Shown: positions 1-12,406 of the stretch, piece after piece
How the letters are laid out: the number at the start of each line of letters is the position of its first letter
Numbering within the stretch: position 1 is the stretch's first letter
UHGV virus genome: UHGV-0130052
From: a virus
Reading direction: 5' to 3' (one strand)
DNA length: 12,406 nucleotides
Program-made: the position numbers and the translations under genes
Notes under the pieces: generated by a model
The model's database searches: none
Seen by the model: the letters and a program-made list of their open reading frames with translations, nothing else
What the model was told of the DNA's origin: nothing

Positions 1-54
1 AGCAGCGCATTCGTAATGCGAAGGTCGTAGGTTCGACTCCTATTATCGGCACCA
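1..54 (+). tRNA. thrW: tRNA-Thr (anticodon CGU), 3' portion only; the 5' end lies upstream of the window
   Basis: Anticodon loop CATTCGTAATGCG (CGT at 13-15), T-arm GGTTCGACTCC, acceptor 3' strand TATCGGC, discriminator A and encoded CCA ending at 54. Matches the enterobacterial thrW sequence as I recall it; the symbol assumes an enterobacterial-type host. Confidence 0.85.
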
Positions 55-55
55 T
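36..55. repeat. attL core: tRNA 3'-end copy of the 20-bp direct repeat ACTCCTATTATCGGCACCAT
   Basis: Identical 20-mer recurs at 12321-12340 in the same orientation; overlaps the tRNA 3' end as expected for tRNA-targeted site-specific integration. Confidence 0.8.
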
Positions 56-660
56 CAAGAAAATCAATAACTTAGCTTAACTTCTCTAAGAAATTGTATC
101 TTCTGTTATCACTTACAAACGCCTATACGTTGTTATGGGCTTTTGGTAGTTTAACACGTATGGGCGAGTAGTTCCCAGGCTCAACCTCGTAACAAGTTCC
201 TTTGAAGCTGGAAGACGTGCCACCGTCTCTAAACCTTCTACCAAAACTCTTAGCAAGATGTTCCACACCTGGCGCGGTGTCCAATGATGCTACACGTCGT
301 GAGACGTTGCAGAGGATAAACAGGCTAAATGATGGGAAGAGTTTTAAGTGCAATAGTGGATTAAAGCCCACCTCTTCAAAACCTAACTTGATCGGGAAAG
401 AATCAAGCTCTAGCACGGTTTCGTCCACCGGAGTACAACGGGTGCCTGATAAGAGAAGAACTGCTAAGACTTCATAGCTTTTGTGAAAAAGCCCTTTTTA
501 GTGGATACGCCTACGGCGCTTATTTTTTGGTATAACCATCAAAGGCGCTTTATGGCTCCTATTGTCTTGAAAATGTATCTTTACTTGTATTGTGTTTTAT
601 GCGTAGTCTCCCTGTGTAGTATGTAACTTGTTAATTTTCATATGAATACAGAGGCACACG

Positions 661-1356: not shown

Positions 1357-1375
1357 AGGAGGCATTACGCCTCCT
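1357..1375 (-). terminator. Hairpin over the stop codon of the recombinase gene (possible terminator)
   Basis: AGGAGGC-ATTAC-GCCTCCT 7-bp GC-rich stem; downstream on the minus strand is UUGAUAUUUGA, only moderately U-rich. Confidence 0.25.
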
Positions 1376-1904
1376 CTTCTTCCTTCTTGATACGTTGCAC
1401 CGTTGAAGGAGCAACATTAAAGCTCTCGGCGGTTTTACGCACTGACAGGCCATCAGAAAGGGCTTTCTTTATACCTTCTCGATCCACTGCTTTTCCATTA
1501 CCACGTTTTGTAGGATTGACGGCTTGCGCTTCTCGTTTACGTTCTAACATCAGTTCACGTTCACACGTTGCAACTGCCGACAACATCGTAAGCATCATCT
1601 TTCCCATCGCGCTTGTAATGTCTGCAATGATTCCTTCTTTGTGAAATCGAACAATTACACCTCGATTATTAAGTTGTTCAACTAAAGCAAGGATGTCTAA
1701 GGTGTTACGTCCTAAACGGTCGAGAGAGTGCACGTGTAAGGTGTCGCCTTCTCTCAGATAGGCTAAACACGCTTGTAAGCCTGGGCGGTTAGTGTCTTTA
1801 CCAGACAGCTTATCTTCAAAGACTTTATCGAGAGTTACTCCTGCAAGCTGGCGATCAGTGTTCTGATCTACAGTGCTCACACGCTTATAACCGATATTGC
1901 TCAT
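1365..1904 (-). CDS. Serine recombinase, resolvase/invertase family (179 aa) with C-terminal HTH
   Basis: N-terminal GYKRVSTVDQNTDRQ catalytic-serine motif; SLDRLGRN and SAMGKMMLTMLSAVATCERELMLER segments resemble Tn3 TnpR/Hin as I recall them; C-terminal SVRKTAESFNVAPSTVQRI HTH; AAGAGGA Shine-Dalgarno before the start. Confidence 0.9.
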   Translation of the reverse strand: MSNIGYKRVSTVDQNTDRQLAGVTLDKVFEDKLSGKDTNRPGLQACLAYLREGDTLHVHSLDRLGRNTLDILALVEQLNNRGVIVRFHKEGIIADITSAMGKMMLTMLSAVATCERELMLERKREAQAVNPTKRGNGKAVDREGIKKALSDGLSVRKTAESFNVAPSTVQRIKKEEEEA

Positions 1905-2477: not shown

Positions 2478-2520
2478 TGCTATGTGACAAATGGATGTAA
2501 CGGTAGGTCATAGTGAGCTA

Positions 2521-2609
2521 CCCCCACAGAATTCTGTTAATCTTAACTTTTAAAGAGATTTGTACCCTAACAAAATTCTGTTACCCCACCCCCACAGAAT
2601 TCTGTTACC
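2521..2609. repeat. Three ~20-bp iterons each containing a 12-bp palindrome: CCCCCACAGAATTCTGTTA (2521-2540, 2589-2608) and variant CCCTAACAAAATTCTGTTACCCC (2565-2587)
   Basis: ACAGAATTCTGT is a perfect palindrome; copies are direct repeats flanked by C-runs and are immediately followed by an AT-rich tract. Confidence 0.7.
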
Positions 2610-2840: not shown

Positions 2841-3476
2841 AAGAGTAATCACCTAACCAATCATACTGATTGCTTATGTGTTAACTCTATCTCTCTACTC
2901 TTAATTACCCTCCTACATTTAATAACTCTGTTATTCTCTGTAGTTGTGTAATTGTTTTCGGTGGAAAAGCCAGAGGCGACACCGAAAGAGAATTCTGATC
3001 TTATTAATCTTATCTATCTTAGTTAATCTTCTTACTTATCTTACTTACTTTATCTACTTTATTATTAATAATAGCTTTATAAGCTCTCTGCGTAGCTCTC
3101 TGACGCAAGAAACAGCATTCAGGAAGGGAATCACCTTAGAAAAGTGTTCTTTGCGTCATAATGTGTTTTATGAAGGATTCAGAGGTGTTTCATAACAGGA
3201 ATGTATAGAGGATACTTTAATTAATTAAAAATAAGGGGTCTAAATGCTTCTCTAACAGCATTAAGCAGGGTAGGGAATGGAAACGCATTGCCTACACATA
3301 TAAGCTCACTACAGGGCTTTACAGGGCGTTTTATAAAGTGACTCTCTATCTTATATCTACCATTACCTTTTCATATACCTAACAAATACAAAATAAGCCC
3401 CTTAAATAAGCCTCTGGCGAGCTAAACAGCCATTACATAAGGGAATGTATTGCTTTTATCAAAATCTCGTTATAAC

Positions 3477-3496
3477 GCGTTTTAGAGCGTTTTAGA
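3477..3496. repeat. Tandem direct repeat GCGTTTTAGA x2, candidate operator ~85 bp upstream of the 3581 promoter
   Basis: Exact 10-bp tandem duplication seen in sequence. Confidence 0.5.
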
Positions 3497-3580
3497 CAAT
3501 AATGAAGAATGGCACTACACAGAAGAGCACGAGTTGCTCGTAAGTGCATGAAAAAGATCGATTTTTTTCGGAAGGGGTAT

Positions 3581-3609
3581 TGACAAACGTCTCTTTCTGT
3601 GCAATAATA
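3581..3609 (+). promoter_or_regulatory. Sigma70-like promoter: -35 TTGACA (3581-3586), 17-bp spacer, -10 AATAAT (3604-3609), for the 3733-5986 operon
   Basis: Consensus -35 with optimal spacer; near-consensus -10; ~120 nt upstream of a gene with a strong AGGAGG ribosome-binding site. Confidence 0.5.
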
Positions 3610-3732
3610 GGAATTAGAGGGGACAGGAATAGATTCTTATCCTCTAAATAATTAAACCAATGCACCGCACTTTGAAGCCCAAGGCTTGCAAGGTGTTTTT
3701 TCTTTTAACCAAATAGAATAGGAGGTTAATTA

Positions 3733-3921
3733 GTGAAGTATTTCACTTCTCAAGATGTAGTTGAAGCCTGGAAACGTGGTGAGATCAACCGCTTTAAAGT
3801 AAGGATGTATAGAAACACCGCTCGCCGTTGTGGTTATCCAGAGCGTGAAAAATGTTTTGACGATGCACTGAAAATTATTGATGAACTGCGTAAAGCTGAG
3901 AAAGAAGCTGAGAAAGAATAA
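3733..3921 (+). CDS. Small hypothetical protein (62 aa), GTG start, charged C-terminal tail
   Basis: AGGAGG 7 nt upstream of GTG; first gene of the rightward operon. No family recognised. Confidence 0.55.
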   Translation: MKYFTSQDVVEAWKRGEINRFKVRMYRNTARRCGYPEREKCFDDALKIIDELRKAEKEAEKE

Positions 3922-3943
3922 TAGACAAGAGAAGGAGAAAACT

Positions 3944-4111
3944 ATGAGCGAAACTAAGAAACCAATTCCGCGCACTTACCTACACGTTGACCCTGAAATC
4001 TTCAAGGTTTTATTTGCTGAAGCCAAGAAAAGGCAAATTATGGTCAGTGATTTGATGTTAGAAATCATTACTGAAGCAGCAGAGAACATCAAACAAAAAA
4101 AGGGTAAGTGA
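3944..4111 (+). CDS. Putative ribbon-helix-helix (CopG/Arc-like) DNA-binding protein (55 aa)
   Basis: AGGAG 6 nt upstream of ATG 3944 (internal start of track ORF 3878-4111); N-terminal basic strand RTYLHV followed by two predicted helices, typical RHH layout. Judged by eye. Confidence 0.5.
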   Translation: MSETKKPIPRTYLHVDPEIFKVLFAEAKKRQIMVSDLMLEIITEAAENIKQKKGK

Positions 4112-4162
4112 TCCTCATTCACTTTAGTAGCGCATTAAGCGTGATTTATAAGGAGATTTTTA

Positions 4163-4816
4163 ATGATTAATGAAGAACAATTTGTAAAAGTTCCTATGTG
4201 GATTCTAAAAATAAGCCAAGTAAACGGGCATAAATTTACAGATAGTGCTAAAAACCTTTACTGCTATCTGAAAGGGTTTGATCGTGCATTTCCCTCTTAC
4301 GCTAAGATAGGCGATGTTTTTGGCATAACACCAAGAGCAGCAGAGGAAAGGGTTAAGAAATTGCTCGAAATGGGATTAATTATAAAAGATGCACGACCAG
4401 GAAGTTCTAATGTCTATCAAGTGGTAGATATTCCACAAGAAGAAGCTAGACAAGAAGCCAAGACACAACAAGAAGCTACTGTTAAAGCTGTTCCTGATCA
4501 GCTTCCGCCTACGGAAGATAATAAACAGCCTTCTTTTGATGTTCTTGATGATTGGGATACGCCTTTACCGTGGGAGACGGAAGAAACACCTGTTTCATCA
4601 AGTGAAAAGGTAGCTAATGATAATGAGGAGGATGTGTTAGAAAATTTTGCCTCTCTTATTATCAAGCAGAAGAATACCAGAACAGCAGGGGCATCATTTA
4701 TAGAATTTGCAAATTCACTAGCTTATAGACACGGGCTAAAACGACCAAATGGTATTGAGGCATATTTTGCTAAGAAACATCCCAAAGTATACGAAGACTT
4801 TGATATTCCATTTTAA
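4163..4816 (+). CDS. Putative replication initiator/replisome-organiser-like protein: N-terminal winged-HTH, acidic C-terminal region (217 aa)
   Basis: AAGGAG Shine-Dalgarno; N-terminal segment (YAKIGDVFGITPRAAEERVKKLLEMGLI) has the look of phage/plasmid initiator wHTH domains; acidic DDWDTPLPWETEETP stretch. Function is inferred, not demonstrated. Confidence 0.45.
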   Translation: MINEEQFVKVPMWILKISQVNGHKFTDSAKNLYCYLKGFDRAFPSYAKIGDVFGITPRAAEERVKKLLEMGLIIKDARPGSSNVYQVVDIPQEEARQEAKTQQEATVKAVPDQLPPTEDNKQPSFDVLDDWDTPLPWETEETPVSSSEKVANDNEEDVLENFASLIIKQKNTRTAGASFIEFANSLAYRHGLKRPNGIEAYFAKKHPKVYEDFDIPF

Positions 4817-4827
4817 TAAGGAGGGTT

Positions 4828-5103
4828 ATGATTCAATATTTAGTAAAAAATCAAGTAGACAGAATTCAGTGTAATGACACAGGAAAACGCATCTACGAAA
4901 CACTTGCTTACCTCTATAAAGGAAAGCCAACACCGCTAAAATATAGCGATGTGTTACACCGAGCAGGGTGCTCTGAAGATGGTTTAAAATTCTGGCTGAA
5001 ACAGCTATCAAACTTCGGTGTTATTGAGATTAAAGAATTATCTTTCTCTACATTCAATCTCAAAAGACTAGATAAAGAAATAGAATTCTATTCCACTCTC
5101 TAA
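4828..5103 (+). CDS. Hypothetical protein, possible small winged-HTH protein (91 aa)
   Basis: Strong AAGGAGGG ribosome-binding site; tightly packed behind the preceding gene; no family recognised. Confidence 0.55.
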   Translation: MIQYLVKNQVDRIQCNDTGKRIYETLAYLYKGKPTPLKYSDVLHRAGCSEDGLKFWLKQLSNFGVIEIKELSFSTFNLKRLDKEIEFYSTL

Positions 5104-5235
5104 AATCTCTCTATGTAATTAAAATATAAAAGGAAAACATTATTATGATAGTAGCTATGTATTGGTTATTGTTCTTTATCACGTTAGAAACATATTTCGG
5201 GGTGTTTTCCTTTAAAAGAAAAGGAAAAGTAAATA

Positions 5236-5646
5236 ATGGCAAAAAGAAAAAACAATGTTGTTAAGAAAATCGGGGATTCAGCTTCTCTTCTAAGTAAACC
5301 TAAATCTATTCTAAGACGCAAAGACTTTAAAGAGCTAGTTACGCTCACCAAGCATAATAGCGCCCCTGGCGAATGGAAAACAGAGATCATAGAACATTCT
5401 CCCTCTGTGCCTTGTGGAGATGAATTTAACGCATTACAAGAAATCTTATCTTCAACACCTGGCGTATTCTGGAAACCTAGAAAAAGAAAAGAGTATATTG
5501 TTGATAGCTCTGATTTACGCAAATACCAGATTTTAGGATTTGAAGACTATAACCACTACGTTGGTTATCTCGCCACCAATGGCCTAAATAATTTAGTTCC
5601 TGAATTCCAAATTTTAGATAATGCTGATCACTATGGAGACTTTTAA
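5236..5646 (+). CDS. Hypothetical protein with basic N-terminus (136 aa)
   Basis: Same strand and operon; AAGGA upstream; the antisense ORF 5184-5522 is rejected in its favour. Confidence 0.5.
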   Translation: MAKRKNNVVKKIGDSASLLSKPKSILRRKDFKELVTLTKHNSAPGEWKTEIIEHSPSVPCGDEFNALQEILSSTPGVFWKPRKRKEYIVDSSDLRKYQILGFEDYNHYVGYLATNGLNNLVPEFQILDNADHYGDF

Positions 5647-5647
5647 T

Positions 5648-5986
5648 ATGAACAAAAACACGTATGATACAATTTACTCACTAATTAATTATTATGAGGA
5701 TGATTACCTCCTGCCTTTAAACCGCGCTGAACTTGATGCATATAAAGAAAACACCCCAGCGGCACTAAATGAGGCGTTTAAACACTGGGATTTAGCTGTG
5801 AATGCCTTTGAGCACCTCTGTAAGCGTGTAGAGATGCTCTGTAAGCGTGAAAACGCATATCTGACAGCCGATCAGATATGGGAGCTATCAAACTGGATAG
5901 AAGATATTGAATCTGATGTTCGCTATGTAGGAGACGGCCTTGTTGAACTAGCTCAACGCTTAGGCGCTACTATCACAGAAGAATAA
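5648..5986 (+). CDS. Hypothetical protein (112 aa from ATG 5648; track ORF begins at 5621)
   Basis: ATG 5648 lies 1 nt after the upstream stop with GGAGAC 7 nt ahead; the 5621 start would overlap the previous gene by 26 nt. Confidence 0.5.
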   Translation: MNKNTYDTIYSLINYYEDDYLLPLNRAELDAYKENTPAALNEAFKHWDLAVNAFEHLCKRVEMLCKRENAYLTADQIWELSNWIEDIESDVRYVGDGLVELAQRLGATITEE

Positions 5987-6015
5987 AAAAAGCAACAAAA
6001 AAGTTGTAAAATATC

Positions 6016-6044
6016 TTGACATTTCATCTATTGTATGTTAATAT
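6016..6044 (+). promoter_or_regulatory. Sigma70-like promoter: -35 TTGACA (6016-6021), 17-bp spacer, -10 TAATAT (6039-6044), upstream of the capsid-containing operon
   Basis: Consensus -35, optimal spacer, near-consensus -10; a second -10-like hexamer (AATTAT/TATATA) follows immediately. Confidence 0.55.
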
Positions 6045-6181
6045 AATTATATAGGGTGATTATTTTTCCTTTATTGGTTCGATATTAAAAATTCTTCTTG
6101 TCGTTAAAGGGGAGTAAAATCTCCGCTCCCCGCTTCTCCTCCTTAAGTAAATACTGTGTCATTATTACCTCTTTTTTCCTT

Positions 6182-6214
6182 TGTTATGCATACATCTTGG
6201 AGTGTGCATAACAT
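6182..6214. promoter_or_regulatory. Inverted repeat TGTTATGCA-N14-TGCATAACA in the operon leader (candidate protein-binding site or RNA hairpin)
   Basis: 9-bp perfect arms seen in sequence. Confidence 0.4.
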
Positions 6215-6227
6215 AGGGTAATTACAA

Positions 6228-6257
6228 AGGCGGCTTTAAATGCTGCCTTTTATTTTG
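6228..6257 (+). terminator. Intrinsic terminator inside the leader, ~60 nt upstream of the first gene of the capsid operon
   Basis: AGGCGGC-TTTAAAT-GCTGCCT stem (7 bp, one G-U) followed by TTTATTTTG. Confidence 0.5.
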
Positions 6258-6264
6258 CCCGTTA

Positions 6265-6282
6265 TACAACTTAAAAGTTGTA
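6265..6282. promoter_or_regulatory. Perfect 18-bp palindrome TACAACTTAAAAGTTGTA between the leader terminator and the first operon gene
   Basis: Exact dyad symmetry seen in sequence, ~37 bp upstream of ATG 6319. Confidence 0.4.
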
Positions 6283-6318
6283 TTTCTTACTTTAAACAAG
6301 GTAACAAGGTTTATATAA

Positions 6319-6531
6319 ATGTTGTTTTTAAACGATAAAGAGCAAATCATCAAGTATAAAGATGAAATGCTGAAAATTAATCCACAAATTACCGAAATGG
6401 TAGCTAAATACGCTGGGTGTTCTGTAGAGGAAGTAGAAAGATGTGTTGAAAAATATTTTTCTCCTTCTTCTCCGTCTACACCTTCCCTTAATGAACTAAT
6501 CAAATTAAAAGCTAAGGAGATTACTAAATGA
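6319..6531 (+). CDS. Small hypothetical protein (70 aa)
   Basis: Stop overlaps the next start (ATGA), suggesting translational coupling; weak ribosome-binding site. Confidence 0.4.
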   Translation: MLFLNDKEQIIKYKDEMLKINPQITEMVAKYAGCSVEEVERCVEKYFSPSSPSTPSLNELIKLKAKEITK

Positions 6532-6908: not shown

Positions 6909-7937
6909 ATGATTCTAGGTAATGATTACGTTGATTTGATCCCTCTGTTCCAGACACACAGCACGCGTAACTTCCTGCTCTCTACCCTTGATTTTACGGA
7001 TTCTGTAGGGGTTACATCTCATAAAGTAGCTGTTTCACAGCTTGTCGAAAGCAACGAATCTCTGTTCAACAAAGAAACCTCTCGTTTCTCTTCTGAACAC
7101 AACGTTACTAAGCGAGAACAAGGTAAAGAATGGCTGATTGAAATCCCTTACTTCCTACGTGAAGATGTGATCCGTCCTTCTGATGTTCAAGGCAAGCGTA
7201 AACCTGGCACTGATTTCCAGGAAACACTCACTGATATTTATGCTGAGTATGTTGCTAAACATCACGTAGCGTATCAGCGTACAAAAGAGAGCGTGTTGGC
7301 GGCTTCTTTGTTCTCTGGCAAAACTTACACGCCTAAAACTGATGATGTTCTTATCGAGTGGGGCAAGCTGTTTAACGTATCAGCTATGAAAGCCACTGTG
7401 AACGCTTCCAGCACTGACACCACGAAGATTTTTAAAGAATTTGATCAGATTGCTACTGACATTATCGAAAAAGCACAAAGCCAGGCGGCTGCTGTAGAGC
7501 GTATTGTTGTTTTCTGTAAGCCGGAAGCCTTCTCTGCAATTCGATTCTCTGCGGGTATGGCAAACGCATTCCAGTATGTAAGCCCACTGGAAGAAGGGAA
7601 CGTTGTGTATCAGCGTCGTGACCTGCTACCAGGAGTGACAGCGTTCACTATTCCAGGAACTAACATTGATGTTGTTAAACTGGTAGATCCGCTACACCTG
7701 GCACATATGACCGCAGACGCTGTAGCTGTGCCTAAATTCTCTAAGGGTAGCGGAATTTATACCAATATCTTCGGGGCTGCTTCCAGCACCTTTGAACTGA
7801 TTAATGCCGCTCCTGCTGAGGTGTATAGCTATAGCTATGAATCTTCTCGTGGTGATGCTGTTAACGTTGTTACAGAGAATAGCCAGATGGTTGTAAACCA
7901 CGGTGTAGGCTTCTCCGTTCAAATCACTGTTAAATAA
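6909..7937 (+). CDS. Putative major capsid protein, lambda gpE-like family (342 aa)
   Basis: Length close to lambda gpE (341 aa). Local similarities to gpE as I recall it: RIVVFCKPEAFSAIRFS vs IIVFDPKGWALFRSF, LFSGKTYTPKTDD vs VLKGKYTMTGE, C-terminal FSVQI vs VSVQLA, N-terminal DLIPLFQ vs FDPLFLR. Followed by a strong terminator. Not verified by search. Confidence 0.55.
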   Translation: MILGNDYVDLIPLFQTHSTRNFLLSTLDFTDSVGVTSHKVAVSQLVESNESLFNKETSRFSSEHNVTKREQGKEWLIEIPYFLREDVIRPSDVQGKRKPGTDFQETLTDIYAEYVAKHHVAYQRTKESVLAASLFSGKTYTPKTDDVLIEWGKLFNVSAMKATVNASSTDTTKIFKEFDQIATDIIEKAQSQAAAVERIVVFCKPEAFSAIRFSAGMANAFQYVSPLEEGNVVYQRRDLLPGVTAFTIPGTNIDVVKLVDPLHLAHMTADAVAVPKFSKGSGIYTNIFGAASSTFELINAAPAEVYSYSYESSRGDAVNVVTENSQMVVNHGVGFSVQITVK

Positions 7938-10105: not shown

Positions 10106-10819
10106 ATGGCGACCGCCGGGATTTTAACCATACGATCAGCAAACTCCCCAGAACAACACGTTCAGGCTGTTTACAAAGCAGAACAAGATATAAACTCTAC
10201 AAAAAACACAAATAACTCTGCCTCTACTGTGAAAGGAGAGAATGGATTTGCTATTGTTACCAGTGGCTTGGCATCTTCTGGTAATGACGTTTATGAAAAT
10301 TATATGGCACTGGCCTTTGACAGTGTTGACGATGTGAACGTGAGACGTTCGGCAGATGTCACAAGCTACCCCGTAGAGAATGGTGCTACTGTGTCTGATC
10401 ACGTTCAAATTAAAAACAATAAGTTTTCTCTTAAAGGGCGTATCTCTGAAACACCGATTAAAAGCGATCCTGGCTTGTTAAAGAGTGCAGGGGTGAACGG
10501 GAACAGAAGATCATTAGCTATCGACTACCTGAATCAGATTATGGACAGTAGACAGCCTTTTCTTCTTGTTACAGAAAATAAAACTTTTGAGAACGTTGTT
10601 TTAACAGGCATCGAATACACAGAAGAGGCAAGCGAATCCCTGGTATTTGATCTTAGCTTTGAACAAATCAGATTAGTTTCTTATGGCACTGTAAACACTG
10701 TAGCTATCAAAACACAGCCATCTAAGAACATAGGGGCTAATATGAAAAAACGTGTTAACACTGAAAAAGCAAGTAGTGAAGGTGAAGACACTATTACTCC
10801 TGCCTTTAAACAGGAATAG
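10106..10819 (+). CDS. Hypothetical protein (237 aa), composition suggests beta-rich; possible virion or accessory protein
   Basis: AAGGA upstream of ATG; last gene of the operon, convergent with the integrase; no motif recognised. Confidence 0.55.
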   Translation: MATAGILTIRSANSPEQHVQAVYKAEQDINSTKNTNNSASTVKGENGFAIVTSGLASSGNDVYENYMALAFDSVDDVNVRRSADVTSYPVENGATVSDHVQIKNNKFSLKGRISETPIKSDPGLLKSAGVNGNRRSLAIDYLNQIMDSRQPFLLVTENKTFENVVLTGIEYTEEASESLVFDLSFEQIRLVSYGTVNTVAIKTQPSKNIGANMKKRVNTEKASSEGEDTITPAFKQE

Positions 10820-10860
10820 CCGTAAATGCCTCTAAAACGCTCTGTAACGATGTAATTATA

Positions 10861-10893
10861 AAAGAGGCTACCAATCTATGTTGAAGCCTCTTT
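10861..10893. terminator. Candidate bidirectional terminator between the convergent 10106-10819 gene and the integrase
   Basis: Perfect 9-bp stem AAAGAGGCT / AGCCTCTTT with A-run on one side and T-run on the other; the 15-nt loop is long, which lowers confidence. Confidence 0.45.
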
Positions 10894-12265: not shown

Positions 12266-12320
12266 TCAATTAGTAATGGTCGTAGGTGATGGCATTAACA
12301 CGAGATTAATCGAGTGTTTT

Positions 12321-12340
12321 ACTCCTATTATCGGCACCAT
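12321..12340. repeat. attR core: second copy of the 20-bp direct repeat (duplicated tRNA 3' end)
   Basis: ACTCCTATTATCGGCACCAT identical to 36-55; not preceded by the rest of a tRNA, so it is a partial tRNA copy marking the element boundary. Confidence 0.8.
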
Positions 12341-12406
12341 TAAAATCAAAGAGTTACCCCATATTTAAATACACCACGTTTCCTCCTGTGCCGTATTTGT
12401 GCCATT

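Follow-up and report, generated by a model that had tools for sequence, protein, structure and literature searches.

A conserved leader terminator marks the early operon of a putative phage satellite integrated at thrW in Escherichia coli

How an integrated element can remain quiet in its host without a recognizable repressor is the question raised by UHGV virus genome UHGV-0130052, a DNA stretch of 12,406 nucleotides (hereafter the window), and more specifically by the six-gene early operon found in its region 3477-5986. To judge from its ends, the window is an integrated element, an island of about 12.3 kb located at the tRNA-Thr gene thrW of E. coli. A preliminary description, made from the letters alone, depicted this region as an early-type operon of six tightly packed genes behind a strong, consensus-like promoter, with a ribbon-helix-helix (RHH)-like regulator, an initiator-like winged helix-turn-helix (wHTH) protein, and a tandem repeat proposed as the operator. 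It had also reported that no cI-type repressor, Cro, excisionase or AlpA-like protein could be recognized. Profile searches concur on this last point, since none of these families was found in the element, either among the annotated genes (Pfam, NCBIfam, PHROGs, and PADLOC) or among additional, mechanically called open reading frames (ORFs), which were scanned against Pfam only (E ≤ 0.1). Two features had escaped the preliminary description: an invariant terminator in the leader of the operon, and the sharing of genes with lytic phages of the Stephanstirmvirinae.

The early promoter (3580-3608, plus strand) is composed of TTGACA (3580-3585), a 17-nt spacer, and the extended -10 element TG-c-AATAAT (TG at 3600-3601, -10 hexamer at 3603-3608). 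With 11 of 12 consensus positions, this near-consensus sigma-70 promoter is the best match in the window. Promoter-like sites are not enriched in this DNA and are even fewer than in shuffled sequences (21 vs 31.5 ± 6.4), so that a consensus match alone would be weak evidence, and the real support comes from conservation. Among 46 related loci, which comprise 35 distinct leader variants, the -35 element TTGACAAA is the same throughout. The -10 sequence varies (AATAAT, TAAAGT, TATTGT, and TAGAAT), with its position, the upstream TG and the spacing all being kept (TG-n-TAnnnT). The promoter is thus conserved across the island family, which substantiates the strong promoter of the preliminary description. 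The six ORFs, designated g1 to g6, span 3733-5986 with gaps of 22, 51, 11, 132, and 1 nt, and the identical six genes are annotated by RefSeq in the related loci L001 (regulatory region 96% identical) and L003 (78%). Between islands, g1-g3 are hypervariable (49-62% amino acid identity) and g4-g6 are nearly identical (97-100%). Purifying selection on g4-g6 is indicated by the codon differences between the window and L003, 25 of which are synonymous vs five non-synonymous. The non-coding control regions are better conserved than the genes.

Between the early promoter and g1 is a leader of about 95 nt that contains an intrinsic terminator (3667-3706, plus strand), made of a 13-bp stem with one bulge (3667-3696), a variable loop, and the tract TTTTTTCTTTT. 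It is a stable, G+C-containing hairpin with a U-tract directly behind it and is placed downstream of a promoter on the transcribed strand; it lies about 50 nt 3' of the predicted transcription start and ends 26 nt 5' of the g1 start codon. The stem is identical in all 35 leader variants, its sole change being a paired A/T co-deletion; the loop, the spacer, g1, and a first leader hairpin (hairpin 1; 3614-3647, plus strand) all vary. Most variants fold hairpin 1 with different arms, and it is weak or absent in L031 and L035, the two most divergent loci. In a set of 18 sequences, all 10 predicted stem pairs of the terminator are invariant, and one paired A/T co-deletion is the only support of the covariation type. 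Termination itself is well supported, and the conserved control feature of the early operon is this leader terminator, not the tandem repeat.

The late operon displays the same layout. A TG-extended promoter (6016-6044) is followed by a structured leader and by an intrinsic terminator at 6226-6250 (6016-6250 overall, plus strand), ahead of the first late gene at 6319. The late leader folds far better than shuffled sequences (z = -5.3), and the region between the early and late genes (5987-6318) is conserved at 91-99%, more than most genes. Ahead of its late genes, the divergent island L004 has its own promoter, an approximately 800-nt leader, and a terminator, none of which is homologous to those of the window. 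The occurrence of a promoter-leader-terminator arrangement on both operons would explain the lack of a cI, Cro or AlpA homologue.

The early operon would serve replication. That g3 (4163-4816, plus strand) is an iteron-type replication initiator is well supported by its matches to the replication-initiator families PHROG 270 (E = 2.6e-10) and PHROG 391 (6.7e-8), in agreement with the initiator-like wHTH protein of the preliminary description. Pfam HTH_36 stays below its cutoff for g3 (19.9 vs 25 bits) and above it in phage proteins with the same domain. The N-terminal wHTH (residues 1 to about 118) is the predicted iteron-binding domain, and the C-terminal half has no phage homologue. The predicted target is an array of ACCCCCACAGAATTCTGTTA (2520-2607, plus strand), with three copies and a fourth, degenerate one at 2981-3000; this presumed g3-bound origin is located about 1.1 kb upstream. 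Across about 40 islands, the type of iteron core found within 2 kb upstream co-varies with the g3 allele, for which at least five N-terminal-domain groups were distinguished. Alleles W (that of the window) and P (P17-like) are associated with the core ACAGAAnnCTGTTA, M1 (muut-N-like) with TATCAAnnnTGATA, M2 (muut-middle-like) with AGGAAn5TTCC, and X (L003-like) with GGTCAnnGTGAnCTA. Exceptions are L010, where no scored core is present, and those islands that have several arrays. The association is comparative evidence for binding of the iterons at 2520-2607 by g3. The upstream regions of L001, L003, L026, and L042 carry two to four different iteron arrays and one g3 allele each, and these multiple arrays may be left over from module swaps or may serve as origins for the initiators of other islands. 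A second repeat family (2386-2475; GAATTACACAGGGAATA and relatives, about five copies) adjoins the iterons. Because these repeats are unchanged in L005 (M1), the sole additional allele group that was examined, and because the block containing them can still be aligned in divergent islands (75-78%), they probably bind something other than g3.

Parts of the early operon are common to lytic Stephanstirmvirinae phages with genomes of about 146-151 kb. The gp153 product of phage muut is 100% identical to g2, and the match continues through the intergenic region 3' of it into the opening codons of the following gene (gp154). Two phage proteins, muut gp154 (L002, 4232-5230) and QNJ49226 of phage Mt1B1_P17 (P17; L051, 1581-2567), combine two HTH_36 wHTH domains with a C-terminal domain of the MUG113/T5orf172 type (GIY-YIG clan). 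MUG113 scored 22.5 bits in muut (cutoff 22.3) and 21.2 in P17, and T5orf172 was sub-threshold at 15 bits. Each phage wHTH domain matches the N-terminal part of an island g3 allele at 84-100% identity, the allele differing between the two domains. At the amino acid level, the muut N-terminal domain is 99% identical to the L005/L014 allele, and the middle domain (that of muut was queried, that of P17 being near-identical) is 84-93% identical to the L004/L008/L010 group. The P17 N-terminal domain is 99-100% identical to the L011/L013/L020 group and 82-83% identical to g3 of the window. Of 50,697 phage records, some of them duplicate entries, only those of about four distinct genomes contained a domain resembling g3. 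The origin-directed nuclease (Odn) of phage ICP1 is built from a domain resembling RepA of the PLE of Vibrio cholerae (elements akin to phage-inducible chromosomal islands) and a T5orf172 domain (PMC8263062). With a satellite initiator DNA-binding domain fused to a predicted domain of the GIY-YIG superfamily (T5orf172-type), the muut and P17 chimeras have an Odn-like architecture and look like dual-specificity anti-satellite nucleases, a reading that fits the hypervariability of g1-g3 beside the near-identical g4-g6.

Similarity to these phages extends to the late module, where the Dit-like protein of the island shares 62% and the tape-measure protein (TMP) 30-53% amino acid identity with muut proteins. 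The 5' end of the Dit-like gene (10137-10265) reaches 89-90% nucleotide identity with many tail-tube-initiator genes of Phapecoctavirus and Justusliebigvirus, and its contrast with the rest of the gene suggests a recently exchanged interaction surface. Gene exchange with lytic phages has been recent and repeated, in both the early and the late modules. This sharing of genes shifts the question from which repressor silences the island to what opens the terminator on infection.

The reading that we favour, with a probability of roughly 0.55, is that 3477-5986 is a satellite replication and takeover operon, kept off by attenuation in its leader and opened upon infection by a helper phage. In the uninfected cell, most transcripts would end at the leader terminator, and the island would stay quiet without a cI-type repressor. 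Infection by the helper would lead RNA polymerase to read through, by means of phage-made or phage-induced antitermination or through feedback from a small early protein, and read-through would turn on g3-driven replication. The late capsid and tail operon, with its similar layout, would then be opened by an early product, and g2, paired with the initiator, would probably act as a small RHH-type protein of copy control or autoregulation.

Several points weigh against this model. The terminator may set a low constitutive level of expression rather than act as a switch. As the stem never varies by substitution, its folding has no covariation proof, and its invariance may reflect a sequence-specific role other than termination, possibly the recognition of a sequence-specific ligand. 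No Q, N or other antiterminator family was detected in any ORF scanned (Pfam, PHROGs, and NCBIfam). The leader, the repeat motif and a TTGACAAA-type promoter are all missing from the whole genome of phage muut, so that no shared cis-signal links phage and island transcription. The AlphaFold monomer of g2 consists of a disordered N-terminus and one helix (residues 17-54, pLDDT, the predicted local distance difference test score, of 86). Finally, a satellite-helper relationship with the Stephanstirmvirinae is the best reading of the shared genes, and its steps of induction, excision, and packaging are ones that we infer from homology.

Among the alternatives, a classical operator would place control upstream of the promoter: a small early protein (g2 as an RHH protein, or g1) would bind the GCGTTTTAGA repeats and repress the promoter, and its inactivation would induce the operon. 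The exact tandem of two GCGTTTTAGA units is indeed present at 3477-3496 (plus strand), within the 20-nt motif CGTTAnnnnGCGTTTTAGAG (3468-3487), and both belong to a strongly conserved non-coding block (3395-3579, plus strand; MAFFT alignment of 13 loci) which also includes the A/T-rich stretch directly 5' of the -35 element. This block is conserved even in islands whose flanks cannot be aligned. A two-copy 10-mer is not unusual per se, as several two-copy repeats of a comparable kind are listed for the window by Tandem Repeats Finder (TRF), and yet the unit itself is over-represented, with six matches (at most one mismatch) vs 1.1 expected and none of 200 shuffles reaching six. The 20-nt motif is moreover repeated exactly, in inverted orientation, at 10830-10849 (minus strand), with the Dit stop codon on one side and the late/int terminator on the other. 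This distal copy belongs to the untranslated 3' end of the late operon and is kept in the thrW islands L003, L024, and L028. Short tandem or inverted repeats are typical binding sites of RHH proteins, and the RHH-like pattern of g2 is maintained.

Other properties of the repeat speak against an operator. One unit is universal in the 13-locus alignment, but the second is missing from three loci (L008, L009, and L013) and degenerate in two (L004 and L006). Across the 46 loci the number of exact copies ranges from 0-1 to three, three units occurring in one locus, a pattern typical of slippage where the sequence tolerates it. With its centre some 125 bp 5' of the predicted start (from about -115 to -135), the repeat is beyond the usual range for repression. 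It co-varies with neither g2 type nor g3 allele, the motif being unchanged across g2 types I and II and across g3 alleles, and the types of promoter and leader vary independently of that of g2. The tandem repeat, which the preliminary description had put forward as the operator, is thus not convincing in this role; it is part of the conserved block and probably not the main switch. Control by such an operator appears unlikely.

Two further roles considered for the repeats were rejected. They could not be retained as hix-like sites for the island invertase (1365-1904), as L001 and L003 have no invertase and keep both motif copies, nor as integrase arm sites, since attL and attR are too distant (about 3.4 and 1.5 kb, respectively). 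An inverted match of 42 nt (74%) between 3453-3494 and 10823-10864, with CGTTAnnnnGCGTTTTAGAG as its core, brackets the whole early-plus-late module.

For g2 (3944-4111, plus strand; 55 amino acids), the assignment as an RHH regulator is tentative. The strand-helix-turn-helix sequence pattern of RHH proteins is present, and relatives of g2 show a G-x-T/S turn (ARGLTVQE in L035 and AEGKSIP in the type II ORF). Profile support is lacking, with no significant RHH match in Pfam, NCBIfam or PHROG, a probability of only 0.5% in hhalign against Arc, and a best PDB profile hit, an antitoxin, at only E = 0.62; the single-helix monomer described above points the same way. The RHH fold requires a dimer. 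In L004 (10083-10230), L008 (3122-3270), and L010, the position of g2 is occupied by the type II ORF (MNINFDSATYNALLNRAKAEGKSIPKLVNELL...), which is RHH-patterned, unannotated in RefSeq, and overlaps the start of g3. Its sole hits, none of them significant, are RHH proteins (FitA-like_RHH in Pfam, E = 0.13; AvtR in PDB, E = 0.58). An RHH fold is plausible for g2.

Alternatively, the early promoter and its terminator might form a gene for a small RNA (sRNA) of about 95 nt, which would be the true product while the island is in a lysogen-like state, acting in immunity in the manner of P4 CI RNA, against phages or on the host, with g1-g6 expressed by leak-through. A strong promoter of the constitutive type followed by a strong terminator should indeed yield an abundant short RNA, and the stem sequence is invariant beyond the needs of folding. 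The P4 early operon, which is controlled by a leader-derived RNA, provides a parallel. Searches for such an RNA and its targets gave little to sustain this idea. Apart from the tRNA end, no Rfam family was matched in the window or in the non-coding regions of L004. Leader stretches of at least 9 nt complementary to other parts of the window were limited to low-complexity U-run/A-run pairings, and phage muut contains neither a target nor a sequence resembling the leader. There is also free variation in hairpin 1 and the linker. An sRNA gene is an improbable explanation of the locus.

The proposal that the window is a decaying prophage remnant, whose promoter, ORFs, and repeats are leftovers without coordinated regulation, would account for the absence of most virion, packaging and lysis genes and for the orphan status of five of the six early proteins, but it is very hard to reconcile with intact ORFs kept in the same order in hundreds of genomes, at no fewer than three attachment sites, a separate integrase serving each, with purifying selection on g4-g6, control regions better conserved than genes, co-varying Rep alleles and iterons, and recent, repeated exchange with living lytic phages.

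The attachment sites used across the island family number at least three, namely thrW, a tRNA-Gly, and the thiM riboswitch (leader) region. In the window, attL (31-58, plus strand) corresponds to the 3' end of the tRNA-Thr gene thrW and forms a direct repeat of 28 nt with attR (12316-12343). The same site is found beside the tRNA-Thr gene in L001 and L003, and Rfam gives a tRNA match at 1-51, truncated at its 5' end. From left to right, the 12.4 kb of the window consist of a short cargo region, about 1.8 kb without genes but with repeat arrays, the six-gene operon, the second promoter, the late genes, and the integrase. The late genes code for a major capsid protein (MCP) of the Phage_cap_E family, the TMP, and the Dit-like protein, and a tyrosine integrase is encoded on the minus strand at the right end. 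Since profile scans of the island genes revealed no terminase, portal, sheath, tube or lysis gene, the island is not an autonomous phage. The MCPs of the window (6909-7937) and of L004 (14115-15149) share 18% identity despite a common overall architecture. In the phage collection, the MCP of the window is nearest to capsids of the Pseudomonas Pakpunavirus type (23-25% identity), with about 20% identity to that of muut. A variable cargo slot lies between attL (or int) and the non-coding origin (59-1904 in the window, 4364-7952 in L005, and 5432-7872 in L004). It contains a serine invertase in the window (1365-1904, minus strand), GmrSD with a helix-turn-helix protein and an invertase in L005, and three genes of no assigned function with a short tyrosine recombinase in L004.

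The regulatory region (3300-3950) is present in 706 of the 5426 complete E. coli genomes, at 60-99% identity. Outside Escherichia, a capsid-protein scan of genome contigs identified essentially no member of the family, the one exception being probably a contaminated metagenome-assembled genome. The thrW locus of O157 Sakai was considered as a documented copy and rejected, as Sp1/Sp2 sit there instead.

The remaining early genes offer few functional clues. Together with g2, the families of g1, g4, g5, and g6 are Escherichia orphans in Pfam, PHROGs, NCBIfam, PADLOC, and PDB sequence searches, and likewise in a word search of 5.8 billion proteins for g1 and g2 and in a complete HMMER scan, for g4, of 1.84 billion representatives. 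g1 (3733-3921, plus strand; 62 amino acids) is confined to Escherichia and is predicted to form a three-helix bundle, the model of which gave generic helical structural matches only, none informative. Its 3' half (3826-3900), encoding the C-terminal GYPEREKCFDDALKIIDELRK, is nearly invariant even in nucleotides, while its N-terminal half varies, and a minus-strand promoter-like site (3902-3874) overlaps this 3' half. g4 (4828-5103, plus strand; 91 amino acids) is an orphan, possibly a wHTH protein, and is 100% identical in L003. The 132-nt gap between g4 and g5 (5104-5235) is the sole sizeable one in the operon; it contains a weak promoter-like site (5119-5146), and an ORF for 39 hydrophobic or basic residues (MIVAMYWLLFFITLETYFGVFSFKRKGKVNNGKKKKQCC, 5145-5264) overlaps the start of g5. 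g5 (5236-5646, plus strand; 136 amino acids) belongs to no family. g6 (5648-5986, plus strand) encodes an acidic, helical protein of 112 amino acids with no family, or of 121 if read from 5621 as in the longer reading of the preliminary description, and as the last early gene it abuts the late promoter. No homologue of g5 or g6 was found among the 50,697 phage records.

A broader proposal, for which we consider the odds to be a little below even, is that widespread islands of about 12 kb parasitize virulent Stephanstirmvirinae, that both of their operons are silenced by leader terminators opened by infection, and that their Rep/iteron modules are chased by dual-specificity nucleases, which would make them the first PLE-like system of E. 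coli. If so, about one in eight complete E. coli genomes would carry a satellite of large lytic phages, including the phage-therapy genera Phapecoctavirus and Justusliebigvirus. The early operon would provide, in a tractable host, a test of repressor-free silence by leader termination and of the sensing of a virulent helper, and would illustrate how an Odn-type arms race diversifies a replicon (g1-g3 vs g4-g6). The two-domain chimeras would extend a single known example, ICP1 Odn, to a second and unrelated system, suggesting that capture of the initiator domain of a parasite is a general phage counter-measure. No description of the island family or of the phage chimeras, and nothing relevant on satellites of Stephanstirmvirinae, Phapecoctavirus, Justusliebigvirus or rV5-like phages or on such thrW islands, was found in the searchable literature, the coverage of which is incomplete, so that an earlier description is possible.

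Compared with known satellites, the islands share with the phage-inducible chromosomal islands (PICIs) a size of 10-15 kb, an integrase at the boundary, a replication module, and variable cargo, and with the capsid-forming PICIs (cf-PICIs) the possession of a capsid gene. They fall outside both groups, having no AlpA, pri-rep, TerS, portal, protease or head-tail connectors; the only structural genes found are those for the Phage_cap_E MCP, the TMP, and the Dit-like protein, and the putative helpers are virulent phages of about 146-151 kb and not temperate ones. With satellite P4, the islands would share the lack of a protein repressor and control by leader termination of a constitutively initiated early operon. 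P4 immunity relies on premature termination in the early-operon leader, directed by the leader-derived CI RNA. In contrast to P4, the island leader has no complementary repeats of the seqA/seqC type and no Rfam hit, and none of the P4 genes alpha, sid, psu, delta or epsilon was detected in the island by Pfam and PHROG scans, which sets it apart from P4-like elements.

The regulatory layout is reminiscent of late control in phage lambda, in which the PR' promoter and the 6S leader are followed by the tR' terminator, which the antiterminator Q opens. In both cases a promoter of the constitutive type and a short leader place an intrinsic terminator before a long operon, and the last early gene abuts the late promoter. 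The island differs from lambda in that no Q-family protein or Q-binding element was found and that its early operon has this layout too. On the replication side, plasmid pMV158 encodes an RHH repressor and an initiator in one operon (copG-repB), and a small RHH-patterned ORF is likewise found directly 5' of the initiator gene in every island examined, although the initiator families differ, the RHH fold of the island protein is putative, and neither an antisense RNA nor an operator was identified.

The closest parallels are with PLE and ICP1, where a small integrated island is also tied to a virulent myophage, a tie that is putative here. As in PLE, the initiator is a predicted iteron-binding protein whose alleles have cognate origins in a long non-coding region, and no repressor or Xis of its own can be recognized. 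PLE uses a serine recombinase and the island a tyrosine integrase. The island genes showed no sequence homology to those of PLE, the initiator is HTH_36/phage-O-like and not RepA_N, and the island supplies homologues of MCP, tape measure, and Dit of its own. On the phage side, ICP1 and the Stephanstirmvirinae both provide a chimera of an initiator DNA-binding domain with a T5orf172/GIY-YIG-type domain, the difference being that the chimeras described here carry two Rep-derived domains, where ICP1 Odn has one.

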